From a virus, in IMG/VR virus record IMGVR_UViG_3300045988_085326, positions 128,001-139,181 of that record: a DNA stretch of 11,181 nt; one strand, 5' to 3'. The translations under genes and the position numbers were made by a program. The notes beneath the pieces are model-generated. The model was given only the letters and a program-made list of their open reading frames with translations, ran no database searches and had not been told where the DNA came from. Positions 3,464 to 11,181 of this stretch are shown here, piece after piece; within the stretch, counting starts at the first letter, position 1, and each line of letters begins with the position of its first letter.

Positions 3464-3536
3464 GCGGAGGTACCCAAGTGGTGATGGGGCTGTTCTTATA
3501 AAGCAGTTGCCGTGAGTTCGATTCTCACCCTCCGTA
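3464..3536 (+). tRNA. tRNA, 73 nt, anticodon TAT (reads AUA; Ile-UAU type)
   Basis: Acceptor gcggagg/cctccgt (G1·U72). Anticodon stem ctgtt/agcag, loop cTtTATaa. T-arm gtgag-ttcgatt-ctcac. Confidence 0.65.
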
Positions 3537-3538
3537 CT

Positions 3539-3659
3539 AAGAAGGTAGCTCAGATGGGAGAGCGCCTGGATAAAGAAAATGGATTAGATATAATCCGAAA
3601 CTGCAACTCTTTTTTCTAAAGGGACCAGGATGTCGTGGGTTCGAGCCCCACCCTTCTTA
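3539..3659 (+). tRNA. tRNA gene interrupted by a ~48-nt insertion in the anticodon arm (121 nt total; isotype unresolved)
   Basis: Perfect acceptor aagaagg/ccttctt. D-arm tagctcagatgggagagc. T-arm gtggg-ttcgagc-cccac. The anticodon stem halves cctgg (3565-3569) and ccagg (3625-3629) are separated by 55 nt containing the hairpin ggatta-GATA-taatcc. Confidence 0.55.
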
Positions 3660-3662
3660 TTT

Positions 3663-3787
3663 GGCGAGATAGCGGAATGGAAAGACGCACCGGAACCCAA
3701 TCGGGTTTAGGAATAAACCATCGCGGCACTACGGACTTAAAATCCGGCGACTTCAGTGTCATGTAGGTTCGAGTCCTACTCTCGCCA
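3663..3787 (+). tRNA. tRNA-Leu(TAA), type II, interrupted by a 41-nt insertion between the 5' anticodon-stem strand and the loop (125 nt total)
   Basis: Acceptor ggcgaga/tctcgcc, discriminator A. D-arm gcg-gaatggaaaga-cgc. ccgga (3690-3694), then 41 nt (with hairpin ggttta-GGAA-taaacc), then loop cTTAAaa and tccgg. Long variable arm. T-arm gtagg-ttcgagt-cctac. Confidence 0.6.
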
Positions 3788-4845: not shown

Positions 4846-5691
4846 ATGAAACTAAGAAGAATTATTGCGGCAGGAATTTTAATTTATTCCTTTATTATTT
4901 CGCCTTGTGCGTTAGCCTTAGAAAGTCAACCTGCGGAAGTAGCAGTTGAAAGCGTCTCTATTCCAGATAAAAGTAGAATAGAGACAGCAATTCCACAGAT
5001 AAGAGAAATTGAGACAAATTTGGTTAAACAACAAGAGACAGAAGTAAAAGAAAATGAAACTTATAAAGAGGTGTTTGATTATGTTTATACGACAAAGCGT
5101 GTGAACATACGAACTTATATTGGAACTGAAAGTGATATATTATTAACTGCGGAAGCAGGAACTAAATTACAACGAGTCGGAATTAATGTAACAACTGGTT
5201 GGGATTTAGTAAGAATAAATAATTGTGATTATTATATTTCAAATGAATATATTACGACTGAGAAACCAGAACAATTAGCTGATAGTATAGAACAGCAATT
5301 AGAAGATAGTAAAATTTCAGCATCAGATTTACGCTATATGTCTGCTATAATATGGGCAGAAGCTGGTAACCAATGTGAAGCAGGACAGCAAGCAGTTGGT
5401 ATTGTAGTAATGAATAGAGTAGCATCAGAAACATATAAAGATACTGTTTATGATGTTATTAATGAACCTTATCAATTTTCTCCAGTTAAAAATGGTTCTT
5501 TTGCAAAAGCTTTAAATTATTATGATAGCGGAGAAATGCCAGAATGTGTTATAGATGCAGCTAAATATGCTTTACATAGTAATACAACTGTAAATTATAA
5601 TGGTACAACGTATGACCTTGATGGTTATTTATGTTTTAGTAGATATGTAAAAAATGCTAAACTTACTATTCAAGACCATATGTTTAAGTGA
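4846..5691 (+). CDS. secreted cell-wall hydrolase: signal peptide + SH3b-like domain + SleB/CwlJ-type (Hydrolase_2) domain; probable endolysin
   Basis: N-terminal MKLRRIIAAGILIYSFIISPCALA looks like a signal peptide. The central RVNIRTYIGTESDILLTAEAGTKLQRV...GWDLVRI block resembles SH3b. C-terminal IWAEAGNQ...GQQAVGIVVMNRV...VINEPYQFSPV resembles the SleB-family signature AEARGE...AVA.VV.NRV...QF. Confidence 0.75.
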   Translation: MKLRRIIAAGILIYSFIISPCALALESQPAEVAVESVSIPDKSRIETAIPQIREIETNLVKQQETEVKENETYKEVFDYVYTTKRVNIRTYIGTESDILLTAEAGTKLQRVGINVTTGWDLVRINNCDYYISNEYITTEKPEQLADSIEQQLEDSKISASDLRYMSAIIWAEAGNQCEAGQQAVGIVVMNRVASETYKDTVYDVINEPYQFSPVKNGSFAKALNYYDSGEMPECVIDAAKYALHSNTTVNYNGTTYDLDGYLCFSRYVKNAKLTIQDHMFK

Positions 5692-5818: not shown

Positions 5819-5832
5819 TTTAAACTTCTTAA

Positions 5833-5861
5833 TTGATTTTATATAAAAATTTTGATAAAAT
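5833..5861 (+). promoter_or_regulatory. sigma70-like promoter copy 5 (TTGATT-17-TGaTAAAAT)
   Basis: aaTTGATTttatataaaaatttTGaTAAAATatttatacaaaacaaaagg. Confidence 0.65.
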
Positions 5862-5891
5862 ATTTATACAAAACAAAAGGAAGTGGTAGAA

Positions 5892-6212
5892 ATGAATAAA
5901 GTAAAATATTTTATTTGGGTAGATGATGAAAGAGTTTTACCTCATTATATTGATGGGATAGCAGAAAATTTCATAGTTTGTAAAACTTATAAGCAAGCTA
6001 TTAATGCTCTTGATACTTATTGTGCTATTGGCAATGTATATCTTGATTTAGACCATGATTTAGGTTGCAGACAGAACGGATATGATATTGCAAAATATAT
6101 AGTAGAGAATCAGATGCCTTTATATGGTTTTTCTTGTCATTCATTTAATCCTGTTGGTAGAAAGAATATTGAAGATTTACTCCAGCATTATGGATATAAG
6201 AAAGGAATATAA
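5892..6212 (+). CDS. hypothetical protein (106 aa)
   Basis: RBS aaaaggaag ~8 nt before ATG 5892 (the track's GTG 5883 overlaps the RBS). The YFIWVDDERVLP...VYLDLDHDLG stretch loosely recalls a receiver-like fold; not assignable. Confidence 0.6.
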   Translation: MNKVKYFIWVDDERVLPHYIDGIAENFIVCKTYKQAINALDTYCAIGNVYLDLDHDLGCRQNGYDIAKYIVENQMPLYGFSCHSFNPVGRKNIEDLLQHYGYKKGI

Positions 6213-6216
6213 AATC

Positions 6217-6333
6217 ATGGGGTTAGGCTTGTTTGTAGGCGGGATTGCTTTGGGATTTATTGGTGGTTTTGTTGTAATAACAGTAATTGCTTTTAAGATT
6301 GTAATTAATGATTTTAATGATTTACCTATATAA
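6217..6333 (+). CDS. small hydrophobic peptide (38 aa, single predicted TM helix)
   Basis: agaaaggaatataaaatcATG, then MGLGLFVGGIALGFIGGFVVITVIAFKIVINDFNDLPI*; lies directly downstream of CDS 5892..6212. Confidence 0.4.
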   Translation: MGLGLFVGGIALGFIGGFVVITVIAFKIVINDFNDLPI

Positions 6334-6337
6334 TTAT

Positions 6338-6366
6338 TTGAATTTTTAAAAAATTTTTGATATAAT
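6338..6366 (+). promoter_or_regulatory. sigma70-like promoter copy 6 (TTGAAT-17-TGaTATAAT)
   Basis: atTTGAATttttaaaaaatttTTGaTATAATatatatatgataagaaag. Confidence 0.7.
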
Positions 6367-6374
6367 ATATATAT

Positions 6375-6545
6375 GATAAGAAAGAAATAAGAAAAAGGGT
6401 TGAGAGTATTATTTCTTATAAAGATTTTTCAAACCAGAAACCCTGAGTTTAATAAGGAAGTGTGAGTATTATCACCGCATTCATTTGTTAAGCAACAGAC
6501 CACGGGAAACTAAGAAGTGCTGTATAGGAAAAAATTCTTATCAAA
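6375..6545 (+). ncRNA. candidate short non-coding transcript driven by promoter copy 6 (no ORF; internal hairpins agggtt..aaccct and gtga-gtattat-tcac; GAGTATTAT direct repeat)
   Basis: Promoter copy 6 upstream, promoter copy 7 downstream. No ORF over 10 codons with an RBS. Confidence 0.3.
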
Positions 6546-6554
6546 AGTTTTTAA

Positions 6555-6583
6555 TTGATTTTCAAAAAAATTTATGATATAAT
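6555..6583 (+). promoter_or_regulatory. sigma70-like promoter copy 7 (TTGATT-17-TGaTATAAT)
   Basis: aaTTGATTttcaaaaaaatttaTGaTATAATatatacataaagaaaaag. Confidence 0.75.
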
Positions 6584-6757
6584 ATATACATAAAGAAAAA
6601 GAAAAAAAGATTTTGTAAAGACACTTGTTCCTGCAAATGCGAACAAATAACAGATATTAAAGAAAGTGTTAAAAACACAACGCGGTAGATTTACATATGG
6701 CATATGAGTTGGTATCCGCTATAATAACAAACTCGTTGCTAAGTGTCTTGTTTATTT

Positions 6758-6831
6758 TGGACCGTAGCTCAGCTGGTAGTAGCATCTGACTGTTAATCAG
6801 AGGGTCGTGGGTTCGAGCCCCACCGGTCCAG
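6758..6831 (+). tRNA. tRNA-Asn(GTT)
   Basis: Acceptor tggaccg/cggtcca. Anticodon arm tctga-cTGTTaa-tcaga. T-arm gtggg-ttcgagc-cccac. About 165-nt leader from promoter copy 7. Confidence 0.85.
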
Positions 6832-6857
6832 TTTTATCAATTATTTGATAAAAGTTT
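6832..6857 (+). terminator. hairpin ttttatcaa-TTAT-ttgataaaa (9-bp A/T stem) directly 3' of tRNA-Asn; possible terminator or processing site
   Basis: Perfect inverted repeat; followed by gtttagagttt. Confidence 0.35.
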
Positions 6858-7121
6858 AGAGTTTAAGCTAGAAAAACTTAGGTTTTAGAGATTGCGGAAC
6901 GTGTGTTTCCTCACTTAGTTGACCTGTTAGAAATTGAAAAACTTAAAGATGTCTGCATACGTCGCGAAAGGTTGGTTTTCGAAATGCGTGAAAAAAACAA
7001 AAACAAGTAACTTAGGTACCAAGTTGCGAATCCTGTCAGGCTATGAGAACAGTTGTGAATGGCTGCAAAGAAAAAGCACAATGGGATATGAAGAAAAATA
7101 AAACTGGGAATATTCTTCAAA

Positions 7122-7150
7122 TTGATTTTTTAAAAAAATTATGATATAAT
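7122..7150 (+). promoter_or_regulatory. sigma70-like promoter copy 8 (TTGATT-17-TGaTATAAT)
   Basis: aaTTGATTttttaaaaaaattaTGaTATAATatttatataagataaagatag. Confidence 0.75.
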
Positions 7151-7168
7151 ATTTATATAAGATAAAGA

Positions 7169-7241
7169 TAGTTATTCAGTTGGTGAGCGGCTGATGCTTC
7201 AATTAGCCATCAGCCGAGAGGTTCAATTCTTTAATAACTAC
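7169..7241 (+). ncRNA. non-canonical tRNA-like element at the 5' end of the promoter-8 transcript (8-bp acceptor-like stem, 8-bp internal stem with 11-nt loop containing UCA)
   Basis: tagttatt (7169-7176) pairs with aataacta (7233-7240). ggctgatg-cttcaattagc-catcagcc spans 7189-7215. D-loop-like cagttggtgagc and T-loop-like gg-ttcaatt-c are present, but no canonical D- or T-stem. Confidence 0.3.
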
Positions 7242-7300
7242 TATGGTTTGGCGGTGATGTTCGTCCTCAAACATAAAACCGATGCTACCGCGGCGGATAT

Positions 7301-7374
7301 CGCTCCTTCGTCTAAATGGTAAGGATAGAAGCCTCTCAAGCTTCAGATGCTGAGTTCGAGTCTCGCAGGAGTGA
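7301..7374 (+). tRNA. tRNA-Glu(CTC)
   Basis: Acceptor cgctcct/aggagtg (G2·U71). Glu-type D-arm tc-gtc-taaatggtaag-gat. Anticodon arm gaagc-cTCTCaa-gcttc. T-arm ctgag-ttcgagt-ctcgc (one mismatch). Confidence 0.65.
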
Positions 7375-7444
7375 TTTGTTTTTCTAATTTTTTGTAACCT
7401 CTCTTAATAAGGATTGCGGTTATCCCTTCTAATTAGCCGCCTGA

Positions 7445-7518
7445 CGCCCCATCGTCTAACTGGTCTAGGATATCAGCCTTTCACGCTGGAGATACGGGTT
7501 CGAGTCCCGTTGGGGTGA
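7445..7518 (+). tRNA. tRNA-Glu(TTC)
   Basis: Acceptor cgcccca/tggggtg. D-arm tc-gtc-taactggtctag-gat. Anticodon arm tcagc-cTTTCac-gctgg (the classic CTTTCAC Glu loop). T-arm acggg-ttcgagt-cccgt. Confidence 0.85.
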
Positions 7519-7736: not shown

Positions 7737-7806
7737 GCGGGGTAGAGGAGTGGTTCCTTGCTAGCCTCATACGCTAGAGACGTGGGTTCGAATCCCACCC
7801 ACCGCA
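7737..7806 (+). tRNA. tRNA with anticodon CAT (Met/fMet-like; 5' CGCGGGG motif), imperfect acceptor stem
   Basis: D-arm gagg-agtggtt-cctt. Anticodon arm ctagc-cTCATac-gctag. T-arm gtggg-ttcgaat-cccac. Acceptor gcggggt vs ccaccgc pairs only 5/7; the boundaries are uncertain. Confidence 0.55.
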
Positions 7807-8296
7807 ATCAGAAGTTGACGGATGTAGAGGTTCTGCAGAACGCTTTACATGAAGGCTTCAGAAGTTGCTCAACTTATGAATGAGATACCTTTGGCAGAAG
7901 TTAAAGGGTAACTGCTTCCAGCGGCGGGATAGAGTCGCACTGACATTACTCTTTCGAGGGAGGAGAAAGAGGGCTTGAGCCAGAGCGCATAAACCAAGTG
8001 CCTAAATCTTGGAGCGATAGATACTGGTGCTGTCGCCAACATAAAGTTGTTTATTTCGTTCCATAAAGCGGATTAGTGTAAAATGGTAATTAGCACGATT
8101 GCCTTATAAAGCAATAAACGAAGGTGTACCAATCCTTCATCCGCAGGTATGTAGGAGATATATCGTAGGTTTTACATCTTGTTTGTCCTGTAAGTCGGTA
8201 ACTTAGTTATTTGGTTTCAAAAAACAAGATTATTTTTTCCCCTCTTTCTGCGGAGGCTATATGGTGTAAAAATAACAGCATACCGCTTAAAATATC
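7807..8296 (+). other. ~490-nt non-coding block, GC-richer than its surroundings, with CAGAAGTT x3 direct repeats (7809, 7859, 7895), a 10-nt palindrome TTCTGCAGAA (7830-7839) and several hairpins
   Basis: No ORF over 20 codons in any frame. Bounded by the CAT tRNA and promoter copy 9. Confidence 0.4.
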
Positions 8297-8300
8297 TTAA

Positions 8301-8329
8301 TTGATTTTTAATAAAAATTTTGATATAAT
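8301..8329 (+). promoter_or_regulatory. sigma70-like promoter copy 9 (TTGATT-17-TGaTATAAT)
   Basis: aaTTGATTtttaataaaaatttTGaTATAATatttatataaagaaagag. Confidence 0.75.
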
Positions 8330-8357
8330 ATTTATATAAAGAAAGAGAAAAATATAA

Positions 8358-8429
8358 GCCGATGTAGCTCAGTGATAGAGCAGGCGTTTCATAGGCGCAA
8401 GGTCGTTGGTTCGAATCTAACCATCGGTA
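8358..8429 (+). tRNA. tRNA anticodon CAT (elongator Met or lysidine-modified Ile2 type)
   Basis: Acceptor gccgatg/catcggt (G1·U72). D-arm gctc-agtgata-gagc. gagcaggcg..tcata..gcgcaaggtcg resembles Ile2/Met tRNAs. T-arm gttgg-ttcgaat-ctaac. Confidence 0.7.
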
Positions 8430-8845: not shown

Positions 8846-8874
8846 CTCTCGACGGAAGTTCGCAATATCGAGAG
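8846..8874 (+). other. hairpin ctctcga-(15 nt)-tcgagag, 6 nt upstream of tRNA-Leu
   Basis: 7-bp perfect inverted repeat directly 5' of the tRNA at 8881. Confidence 0.4.
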
Positions 8875-8880
8875 AATTAT

Positions 8881-8963
8881 GGGGATATGGCGGAATTGGC
8901 AGACGCATGGGACTTAAAATCCCAAGTCCTCGAGACGTGTGGGTTCGAATCCCACTATCCCTA
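8881..8963 (+). tRNA. tRNA-Leu(TAA), type II, uninterrupted
   Basis: Acceptor ggggata/tatccct (G1·U72). D-arm gcg-gaattggcaga-cgc. Anticodon arm tggga-cTTAAaa-tccca. Long variable arm. T-arm gtggg-ttcgaat-cccac. Discriminator A. Confidence 0.85.
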
Positions 8964-9586: not shown

Positions 9587-9753
9587 CTCTGTTAGGGTTT
9601 GGAATCCCTTTAACTCAACCGAGGCAGAACTAGAAGAAACCTTGCAAGGATATATAAATTATTTTATTAAACTTATTTTATGAAATGGGTCGCCGTATTA
9701 ATATTATAGCATATAAAATTTAGAAGACAACGGCGACAAAAAGATTAATTATT

Positions 9754-9829
9754 CGCAGTATAGCTCAATCAGGTAGAGCGCTCCCATTGTGGAGGGAGAG
9801 GCTATGAGGTTCAAATCCCATTGCTGCAA
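9754..9829 (+). tRNA. degenerate tRNA-like gene (good D-arm and T-loop, no clean anticodon arm or T-stem); possible pseudo-tRNA
   Basis: tagctcaatcaggtagagc D-arm and ggttcaaatcc T-loop. Acceptor cgcagta/tgctgca carries a C1·A72 mismatch. The middle (ctccc-attgtgga-gggag) gives an 8-nt loop, and the T-stem tgagg/cccat does not pair. Confidence 0.35.
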
Positions 9830-9964
9830 TTTGACGAACGGTAGGCTGCGGGTCCTGAGTCTTAGACCAAGACCTCGTCCTAGGAAGCGGCGTTCCTACT
9901 AGTCATTATCATAAAAGATATTCCTTTCAAAGTATTTTCCATGCGGAGATTATCTTCGCAATTT

Positions 9965-10721: not shown

Positions 10722-11135
10722 ATGGCACTTCACAATAGAAGATATTATCGTATCCAAAGACAAAAGCACATCAATCGAAAGAAAAGAATTATTAAAGAAC
10801 AAAATAATTATTGGCACTATGAACATGAAGGTGTTCTTAATAAAGGAAAAATTCATTGCGGTTGTGGAATGTGTAGAAGCAAAACTAATAATAAAGGTAA
10901 ACACCGTTTAATACATGGAAATTATGCTCCTTCAAAAAATTGGAAACATTCTGATAAACAAAAGATAGAAAGTATGAACACGGCAATCGCTGATTATGAG
11001 CGCGAGATAACTGAAATTGAAGCGCTTGGAGCCTACTTTCCGCGACAGTTCAATGCTTTTGAATATTATGATGATGCGAATTGGGCATATGAAAATGAAC
11101 TTCTTGAAAAAATGATTGCAGATTTACCTGATTAA
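10722..11135 (+). CDS. hypothetical basic protein, 137 aa (Arg/Lys/Tyr/Trp-rich N-terminus, HCGCGMC motif, acidic C-terminus)
   Basis: Perfect RBS aaggagg 5 nt before ATG 10722. The track's ATG 10653 lies inside tRNA-Ser. Composition resembles CDS 3880..4473 and the split ORF at 4501. Confidence 0.65.
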   Translation: MALHNRRYYRIQRQKHINRKKRIIKEQNNYWHYEHEGVLNKGKIHCGCGMCRSKTNNKGKHRLIHGNYAPSKNWKHSDKQKIESMNTAIADYEREITEIEALGAYFPRQFNAFEYYDDANWAYENELLEKMIADLPD

Positions 11136-11164
11136 TTGATTTTTAATAAAAATTATTATATAAT
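11136..11164 (+). promoter_or_regulatory. sigma70-like promoter copy 10 (TTGATT-17-TATAAT)
   Basis: aaTTGATTtttaataaaaattattaTATAATatttatataagaaataa at the window edge. Confidence 0.7.
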
Positions 11165-11181
11165 ATTTATATAAGAAATAA

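Follow-up and report, generated by a model that had tools for sequence, protein, structure and literature searches.

A conserved tRNA-like RNA with a non-decoding central helix, predicted at the head of a phage tRNA-Glu operon

The window studied here, the whole stretch of 11,181 nucleotides (nt) at positions 128,001 to 139,181 of the IMG/VR virus record IMGVR_UViG_3300045988_085326, carries an element of 73 nt at positions 7169-7241, ahead of two transfer RNA (tRNA) genes for glutamate. Comparison with orthologues from related phages shows this element to be, as judged from sequence, a conserved and structurally constrained RNA gene of tRNA size, and its predicted product to be unable to decode. 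The element is tRNA-like, not a tRNA. Its family is absent from Rfam, and we describe it as a tRNA-like non-coding RNA with a well-supported predicted structure and a proposed function. As to that function, we suggest tentatively, and with somewhat less than even confidence, that the gene is conserved for a non-decoding, tRNA-shaped RNA which would act in trans as a tRNA mimic.

Structure and conservation of the element

An earlier sequence-only reading of this DNA had described a terminal stem of 8 base pairs (bp), a central 8-bp stem closing an 11-nt loop, stretches resembling a D-loop and a T-loop, and UCA and UUA triplets in the central loop. All of these are present. Both stems were confirmed by script, the two loop-like stretches can be read directly in the sequence, and both triplets lie in the central loop. 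The parts of the element are as follows.

7169-7176, + strand: 5' strand TAGTTATT of the acceptor-like helix, 8 bp with 7233-7240, confirmed by script
7177-7188, + strand: D-loop-like single strand CAGTTGGTGAGC, pattern A-R-Y-Y-G-G-N-N-A, without a D stem
7189-7196, + strand: 5' strand GGCTGATG of the central helix, a perfect inverted repeat with 7208-7215
7197-7207, + strand: 11-nt central loop CTTCAATTAGC, closed by the central helix
7208-7215, + strand: 3' strand CATCAGCC of the central helix, confirmed by script
7218-7232, + strand: T-arm-like hairpin GAGG / TTCAATT / CTTT, 4 bp of which two are G-U, with a loop that fits UUCRAWU
7220-7229, + strand: T-loop-like stretch GGTTCAATTC
7233-7240, + strand: 3' strand AATAACTA of the acceptor-like helix, read from the sequence and confirmed by script
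7241, + strand: unpaired C at the discriminator position; CCA is not encoded

The central stem is extended to nine pairs by C7188-G7216. Pairing within the D-like stretch amounts to 3 bp at most in the window copy (GUU/AGC) and is not conserved, and across the family, whose members are 70-82 nt long, a connector of 1-3 nt stands where a tRNA has its variable region. In the relative L002 (relatives are given by our contig numbers), T7230 is replaced by C, by which a G-U pair of the T stem becomes G-C. The central helix takes the place of the anticodon arm, with a predicted 8-9 bp and a loop of arbitrary sequence, and because of this replacement the RNA should be unable to pair with a codon.

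A minimum-free-energy (MFE) fold, which the sequence-only reading had named as a check, gave -24.2 kcal/mol for the 73-mer versus -13.2 +/- 2.6 kcal/mol for shuffled sequences (z = -4.3), and none of 200 shuffles was as good. The reverse strand of the element folds less well. Perfect 8-bp hairpins are found in the AT-rich window as 23 overlapping hits, compared with about 6 in shuffled sequence. Since a single hairpin of this kind is not rare, the case rests on the nesting of the stems and on their conservation in relatives.

Relatives were collected by DNA patterns, by the cell-wall hydrolase gene at 4846-5691 and by homologues of the cREC_REC gene at 5883-6212. Orthologues of the element were found in at least 11 further sequence variants, on independent metagenome or virome contigs of related gut phages, at the following positions.

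L001/L002: 13171-13243
L029: 820-892, - strand
L028: 3712-3784, - strand
L024/L025: 3720-3791
L005 (identical sequence in L016 and L017): 7803-7872
L026: 4414-4483, - strand
L039: 1053-1125
L006: 11564-11640
L013/L014: 2215-2291
L020 (also L018): 2061-2142

A family covariance model built from ten sequences gave 49-71 bits for members of the family and at most 28 bits for everything else, ordinary tRNAs included, and it found one copy of the element per phage. The orthologue in L039, which was outside the training set, was recovered by this model with 49 bits (E = 4e-10). As a negative control only, the model was run against 566 kb of unrelated bacterial and archaeal DNA (80 loci, selected with a loose pattern) and found no match. 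The window is part of an uncultivated phage and holds its tRNA array. Among GenBank phages the window region matches nothing beyond tRNA-Glu itself, and no close protein relative and no clue to the host of the window phage were obtained there; a pattern search of viral contigs for the variant of the L006 type also found no match. Two further candidates were not accepted as orthologues. L003 12778-12842, which scores 44 bits with the tRNA model and has an anticodon loop of zero length, belongs by synteny to another slot, and the same holds for L020 2647-2718; L039 and L020 carry both kinds of gene. L020 2647-2718 was left out of the final alignment (A6 instead of A4) because synteny places it elsewhere.

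The ten orthologues were aligned by hand to the structure, with N-padding, because MAFFT misregistered the central stem. In this alignment 96% of the pair cells hold standard pairs and 9 of the 20 pairs have changed on both sides, six of them among the 8 pairs of the central helix and three among the 8 of the acceptor helix, where 97.5% of cells are paired. When the 3' partners were slid by 1-3 columns, at most 3 pairs showed two-sided change and pairing fell to 27-52%; not one of 500 shuffles attained the observed values for pairing or two-sided change. An earlier alignment gave the same picture. The compensated positions of the acceptor stem lie more than 56 nt apart. The 5' strand of the central stem reads GGCTGATG, GGCTGGCG, GGGCGACA, GGGCGGTA, GGCGGAAG, GGGTAAAG or GCGGCGATG depending on the lineage, and the other strand always matches it. 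G-U pairs occur in the central stem of L024 and in the acceptor stem of L006, which indicates that the pairing belongs to the RNA of the + strand.

Conservation is also seen outside the paired positions. The GG of the D-like stretch is kept in all orthologues, and U8 and the A-R-Y-Y-G-G motif are kept in most of them. The acceptor stem is identical among lineages whose neighbouring protein is just 56-79% identical, and together with the discriminator C it is strictly conserved in lineages of the window type; the discriminator base is T in L039 and A in L020A. The identity of the element to the window copy is 58-84%, as compared with 59-84% for the neighbouring true tRNAs, and the spacer that follows the element is at the random level (46-56%). 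In every variant the acceptor and T stems together make up 12 contiguous pairs on the 3' strand, split 8/4 in the window type, 7/5 in L006 and 6/6 in L020A, and the T-loop reads UUCRAWU in 10 of 12 variants. A 12-bp acceptor/T stack is the length measured by RNase P and RNase Z.

Central loop and tRNA membership

The sequence of the central loop behaves differently from the helix that closes it. In L001/L002, which are 96% identical over the region, the arms are identical and the loop, GCTAATTGAAG, is the exact reverse complement of the window loop CTTCAATTAGC. The same loop GCTAATTGAAG is carried by L028 and L029. The loop of L024, GTTCTGGTAGA, resembles the window orientation, and those of L005/L026 (GCCTATGGAG) and of L039 (GCAATGGAT) resemble the orientation in L001. 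Loop lengths among the variants are 9, 10, 11, 16 or 18 nt. Therefore, the sequence of the central loop does not appear to be under selection. Template switching in replication can create or repair perfect hairpins and invert their loops without selection (PMC8794818), and the pattern of inversion described here would fit such a process. We also considered an invertible switch driven by a recombinase and rejected it: the segment is of 11 bp between arms of 8-9 bp, far too short for recombinase action, and no recombinase domain was found among the window proteins. The element also provides a clean natural case of hairpin-loop inversion between near-identical genomes.

The sequence-only reading had laid emphasis on the UCA triplet as a possible opal-reading anticodon, and this emphasis does not survive the comparison. 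No other variant has UCA at the corresponding place in its loop, and we take the triplet to be incidental because the loop is inverted in the nearest relatives and variable in length. Window genes end with TGA, TAA and TAG alike; TGA is therefore an ordinary stop in the window, and nothing points to opal reassignment. The case shows how a reading of the loop from sequence only can mislead, here by way of an apparent UCA 'anticodon'.

The same reading had called the element a non-canonical tRNA-like RNA and had proposed covariance models as a test. ARAGORN called 15 tRNAs in the window, the element not being among them, and no transfer-messenger RNA (tmRNA). At gathering score, Rfam found 14 tRNAs in the window and none at the element. 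In a permissive search of 221 nt (7100-7320), the Rfam tRNA model (RF00005, gathering score 29 bits) had no match at E<=10, and the sole match of tRNA type was that of the tRNA-Sec model with 12.7 bits and E = 7 (gathering score 47), which is at chance level. All permissive matches (a T-box at 13.7 bits, tRNA-Sec at 12.7 bits, a microRNA and some small RNAs) were rejected as chance. Four orthologues searched in their own contigs (17-kb search) matched no tRNA, tmRNA or other Rfam family. The models for tRNA, tRNA-Sec and tmRNA thus give no tRNA-like score. What stands of the earlier description is the likeness: location in a tRNA array, acceptor stem, T-loop, GG, 12-bp stack and structural constraint. 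Membership in the tRNA family, for which no model match was obtained, does not.

Feature by feature, the result is similarly divided. Instead of the canonical anticodon arm (5 bp, 7-nt loop, U33) there is a stem of 8-9 bp with a loop of 9-18 nt, and a D arm with a stem of 3-4 bp is missing. The 12-bp acceptor/T stack and the T-loop of a canonical tRNA are present, with a weak T stem in the window copy and a rival pairing. Assignment to tRNA-Sec or to an opal suppressor is opposed by the lack of a conserved UCA and of a long variable arm, and assignment to tmRNA by position 3-70, a G-C pair in 10 of 10 aligned orthologues, and by the absence of a model match. A scan for intrinsic terminators found none at the element, where the hairpin is followed by GAGAGGTTCAA. 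The ten hand-registered sequences do have the properties of a conserved structured non-coding RNA. Two apparent links to particular tRNAs were dismissed. The sequences GCUGA/UCAGC of the central stem equal the anticodon stem of the tRNA-Tyr in the window, which is not so in other lineages and is therefore a coincidence; and a histidine identity, suggested by the discriminator C and the 8-bp stem, is contradicted by the base before position 1, which is A in all copies. A full-text search of the literature returned no description of phage tRNA-like RNAs without an anticodon.

Operon setting and possible roles

The element stands in the following setting, which agrees with the earlier placement directly after promoter copy 8 and ahead of two tRNA-Glu genes.

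7122-7150, + strand: promoter found by consensus scan, with -35 box TTGATT (7122-7127), 17-nt spacer and TG-extended -10 box TATAAT (7145-7150)
7157-7168, + strand: predicted 5' leader of about 12 nt up to the first paired base, from promoter geometry
7242-7299, + strand: spacer from the element to tRNA-Glu(CTC), in the same transcript and outside the element
7300-7375, + strand: tRNA-Glu(CTC), called by ARAGORN and Rfam, co-transcribed downstream
7376-7444, + strand: conserved spacer between the tRNA-Glu genes
7445-7518, + strand: tRNA-Glu(TTC), called by ARAGORN and Rfam, co-transcribed downstream

The promoter is one of eight repeated copies (family D1), and its geometry would put the transcript start near 7157, about 7 nt past the -10 box and 12 nt ahead of the element. 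The same promoter precedes the orthologues in L002, L005, L006, L024, L026, L028 and L029. In every lineage the element is the first structured unit after the promoter and always lies upstream of the tRNA-Glu genes. Its distance to the promoter varies from 12 to about 165 nt across lineages and that to tRNA-Glu(CTC) from 2 nt (L026) to about 300 nt. Since the latter distance is not fixed, an independent gene product fits better than a partner in cis. The flanking gene is the cREC_REC gene (5883-6212), with a 'cyclic-phosphate processing receiver' domain, and in one relative an RNA ligase family is weakly matched; both would fit a phage that invests in its tRNA supply.

For the proposed tRNA mimic, the course of events would be as follows. 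The element would be transcribed first in the early tRNA operon of the phage, cut by RNase P at 7169 and by RNase Z after C7241, and then receive CCA, to yield a stable RNA of about 76 nt. We infer maturation by tRNA enzymes because the 12-bp acceptor/T stack, the T-loop and the D-loop-like GG are kept. The mature RNA might then tie up a protein that recognises the shape of tRNAs or their acceptor end, without entering translation, the partner being most plausibly a host factor of tRNA-directed defence or of tRNA processing. The acceptor stem has none of the known identity sets that are independent of the anticodon (no G3-U70 as for alanine, no G-1:C73 as for histidine, no long variable arm as for serine), and the RNA is therefore expected to be uncharged. 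Action in trans is favoured because the spacing is free, other promoter copies stand directly before normal tRNAs, a helix of the length of an anticodon arm is kept, and the phage invests in tRNAs.

Several points weigh against this proposal. Two related phages, L003 and L035, apparently lack a good copy of the element, and the registration of the alignment was made by hand. The covariation of the central stem is weaker evidence of function, because template switching can repair hairpins unselected. Of the three helices, RNAalifold independently finds the acceptor and the central one; for the third, it prefers to the T arm a pairing of 5 bp between the T-loop and the 3' part of the D-like stretch. 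Seven of 11 variants prefer a rod-like fold, with the three-way fold 3-9 kcal/mol higher, and the gap is largest in the window copy (-15.4 kcal/mol for the three-way fold versus -24.2 for the rod, a difference of 8.8 kcal/mol), in which the T stem is weak, with two G-U pairs among its four. The T-loops of two variants are non-canonical, CTCGGTT in L028 and TCCGATT in L020A. Moreover, a stoichiometric decoy would be a poor inhibitor of a catalytic enzyme. On the other hand, the D-like/T-loop pairing shows no two-sided changes and is broken in 6 of 50 cells, and the three-way fold with the T arm is the MFE structure, or within 1.5 kcal/mol of it, in L039, L006, L013 and L020A. The T arm is favoured by L020A, which is unable to form the rod pairing, and by L006, which forms it poorly.

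A doubtful but real possibility is that the element acts in cis, its tRNA-like 5' fold recruiting RNase P and RNase Z to remove the conserved leader and to order the maturation, or the stabilisation, of the downstream tRNA-Glu precursor, after which the excised RNA would be idle. Its constant place as first structured unit ahead of tRNA-Glu, a 12-bp stack of the kind that these enzymes measure and the irrelevance of the loop sequence would all agree with such a role. However, the promoter at 8301-8329 lies directly before tRNA-Met at 8358, and since promoters stand immediately before ordinary tRNAs, a sacrificial leader is not needed; neither the distance to the promoter nor that to tRNA-Glu(CTC) is conserved, and retention of the 8-9-bp central helix is left unexplained. 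We consider it distinctly unlikely that the element is a pseudogene in which template switching has made a perfect hairpin of the anticodon arm and goes on repairing it, the remainder surviving as young or harmless. An origin of this kind is suggested by what looks like a relic D arm (TTC-AGTTGGT-GAGC resembles GCTC-AGTTGGTA-GAGC without the 5' strand of the D stem), by the loop inversion between phages that are 96% identical, which is a signature of template switching, by other damaged-looking tRNAs in these arrays, and by the altered T-loops of L028 and L020A and the weak T stem of the window copy. It is opposed by an acceptor stem that stays identical where the neighbouring protein is 56-79% identical and whose changes in L039, L006 and L020A are compensated on both strands more than 56 nt apart, by conservation like that of true tRNAs next to a saturated spacer, and by a 12-bp stack that holds under three partitions.

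The remaining explanations account for fewer of these observations. A non-ribosomal carrier, charged by way of acceptor features and donating its amino acid to a phage or host transferase, could dispense with an anticodon, and the strict conservation of acceptor stem and discriminator C in lineages of the window type would suit it; PMC13219725 states that phage enzymes using aminoacyl-tRNA outside translation exist. It is nevertheless improbable, as known acceptor-based identity sets are absent, with A as the base before 7169, the window shows no gene for a transferase or synthetase, and L039 (T) and L020A (A) have other discriminator bases. Much less probable again is a site that works as DNA, be it an operator, a nick site, a cruciform of the origin type or a recombinase switch. 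The perfect 9-bp inverted repeat with its spacer in both orientations invites that explanation, yet on the opposite strand the G-U pairs in L024 (central) and L006 (acceptor) would turn into A-C mismatches, folding is poorer for the reverse strand, the stem lacks the sequence conservation expected of a protein-binding site, and for recombinase inversion the spacer is far too short and no recombinase was found in the window. An unusual decoding tRNA, whether an opal suppressor or a tRNA with an insertion in its anticodon loop, deserves practically no credence. The stretch CUUCAAU can be read as an anticodon loop of 7 nt with U33 and UCA, and the neighbouring slot of L035 holds a Glu-like gene (2254-2325) to which ARAGORN gives the anticodon TCA, but the inversion of the loop in the nearest relatives, its range of 9-18 nt without a shared UCA, the stem of 8-9 bp, the lack of any ARAGORN or Rfam tRNA call and the ordinary use of TGA as a stop all speak against it, and we reject the reading as an opal anticodon.

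Phage tRNA arrays are now viewed as counter-measures to host nucleases that destroy tRNAs, and to our knowledge only decoding tRNAs have so far been considered in that role. If the tRNA-mimic proposal holds, a conserved non-decoding tRNA-shaped RNA would mean that such arrays also encode decoys, competitors or cofactors that act by shape alone, and the element would be a concrete candidate for RNA-based anti-defence. Since the whole family escapes standard tRNA finders and Rfam, genes of this kind probably go unannotated in viromes. A wider proposal, which we regard as unlikely though worth stating, is that this lineage of phages encodes a set of tRNA mimics, purpose-built with disabled or remodelled anticodon arms and made from early promoters as decoys or cofactors against host tRNA-targeting immunity. 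The set would consist of this element, the elements called 'B' (described below) and 'C', the variants of the tRNA-Glu(CTC) slot with no loop or a 6-nt loop, and conserved tRNAs with insertions of 40-55 nt; the element would then found a new class of decoy RNAs that lack an anticodon.

Other tRNA-like genes and known systems

The promoter module occurs in the window at 441-499, 2372-2430, 5820-5878, 6325-6383, 6542-6600, 7109-7167, 8288-8346 and 11123-11181, and drives protein genes as well as tRNA operons. Its conservation reaches into the transcribed leader, for about 20 nt beyond the -10 box (ATTTATATAAGAAATAAAG). The spacer 7242-7299 contains a conserved stem-loop, GGCGGTGATGTT-N8-AACATAAAACCG, also found in L020, with a compensatory change of T-A to C-G, and in L035, where it lies directly 3' of the promoter. 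Further along this spacer L002 and L029 have an insertion of 11 nt (GCTGACTAATA), and L029 also lacks 5 nt (GATGT) on the 5' side of the stem-loop. The spacer 7376-7444 is up to 86% identical to that of relatives, above the conservation of the tRNAs themselves, and contains AACCTCTCTTAA followed by a 6-bp hairpin (AAGGAT...ATCCTT).

Other unusual tRNA-like genes were seen in the window and its relatives. At 3539-3659 lies a tRNA (49 bits with Rfam, no ARAGORN call) whose anticodon loop is replaced by a conserved insertion of about 48-55 nt. This insertion, which contains a small hairpin and the conserved sequence ACTGCAA and is kept in all lineages, is too short to be a group I intron; counterparts of the gene are L003 8702-8818, L005 3735-3854, L016 3357-3474 and L018 9339-9452. 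It is followed at 3663-3787 by a gene of 125 nt resembling tRNA-Leu(UAA), with acceptor GGCGAGA/TCTCGCC, anticodon loop CTTAAAA, a long variable arm and about 40 nt inserted into the region of the D arm, which neither ARAGORN nor Rfam called and which is conserved in relatives (L002 8816-8940, L003 8821-8945). The tRNA-Asn(GTT) of the window (6757-6832) has no intron. In L003 (11768-12578) and L005 (6727-7252) its anticodon loop is split by an intron of about 450-740 nt that carries an open reading frame of endonuclease type, HNH-like by eye in L003 and matching PDDEXK_5 in L005. A tRNA with an 8-nt anticodon loop (48 bits with Rfam) is found at 9753-9830, L002 16146-16223 and L006 13734-13811; ARAGORN assigns it a 4-base anticodon, tgtg in the window and L006 and tatg in L002. 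The region 8067-8146 matches the tRNA model weakly (32 bits); its anticodon-like loop is CTTATAA, its T-loop (GTGTACCAATCC) is aberrant, and it is conserved in relatives (L003 13518-13655, L005 about 8873-8950) along with the long spacer 7807-8066 that precedes it. Just after the tRNA array of L024, positions 10434-11804 encode a protein of 456 amino acids with DUF2828 and DUF7788 domains.

The slot about 70 nt upstream of tRNA-Glu(TTC), occupied in the window by a normal tRNA-Glu(CTC) at 7300-7375, has a highly variable anticodon arm among relatives. The gene in L003 (12778-12842) has no loop and still reaches its tRNA score, that in L024 (4008-4081) has a 6-nt loop, CUAAUU, and that in L039 (1421-1487) has an irregular arm. 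The L035 gene at 2254-2325 combines a Glu-like body with the anticodon TCA, is labelled 'SeC' by ARAGORN and is a candidate opal suppressor. A second, non-orthologous tRNA-like gene of the same design as the element is L020 2647-2718 (same sequence in L023, 2421-2492), with a 7-bp acceptor, a canonical T arm, an 8-bp central stem with two G-U pairs and the tetraloop AACU; it sits between the two tRNA-Glu genes, in a phage where the element's own orthologue is present as well. A third conserved tRNA-like unit, 'B', has a hairpin followed by TAGAAAGCTAAGATGAAG and a canonical T arm (GTGGGTTCGACTCCCAC), and occurs in L005 (about 7875-7985), L016, L024 (3792-3885), L028 and L020 (about 2380-2470). 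The window apparently keeps only a 5' remnant of it (GGCGGTGATG at about 7250).

With canonical tRNA (RF00005) the element has in common its size, its location in an array, the 12-bp stack, UUCRAWU, the GG stretch and U8, and ordinary tRNAs are the next-best matches of the family model (14-28 bits). It differs by lacking a D stem and a variable region and by its central stem of 8-9 bp and loop of 9-18 nt. The 8/4 and 9/3 allo-tRNAs and bacterial tRNA-Sec (8/5) decode, and they have a normal anticodon loop as well as a long variable arm. Like them, the element of the window type (8/4) offsets an acceptor of more than 7 bp by a shorter T stem, but it has neither that loop nor that arm. The tRNA-Other of Bacillus cereus and the species 1 and 2 RNAs of phage T4, which did not come up in the literature searched, have roles outside translation. 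They resemble the element in being encoded with tRNA genes, in having tRNA-like processed ends, such as the element would acquire, and in the absence of ordinary decoding. However, tRNA-Other keeps a loop of the anticodon type, species 1 and 2 are much longer, and no sequence relationship with the element was seen. YrlA RNA (RF02553) also joins a tRNA-like module to a long helix in the place of the anticodon stem, in the opposite topology: there it is the long helix that holds the ends of the RNA, and the stem resembling an acceptor is closed. The YrlA model had no match at the element; weak sub-threshold matches in the window (3493-3592, 28 bits) and in L003 (16268-16378, 36 bits) overlap ordinary tRNA sequence.

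The closest architecture is that of the tRNA-like domain of tmRNA. In this domain, including that of the reduced jakobid mitochondrial tmRNAs without a message part, an acceptor is set on a T arm and there is no anticodon. The element differs in having G3-C70 instead of the alanine pair G3-U70, and in a central helix that ends in a short loop, whereas that of tmRNA leads to pseudoknots and the tag reading frame; it is neither called as tmRNA by ARAGORN nor matched by the tmRNA or mt-tmRNA models of Rfam. Common to both are the acceptor/T stack, a D-loop that lacks its stem and a long helix standing where the anticodon arm would be.

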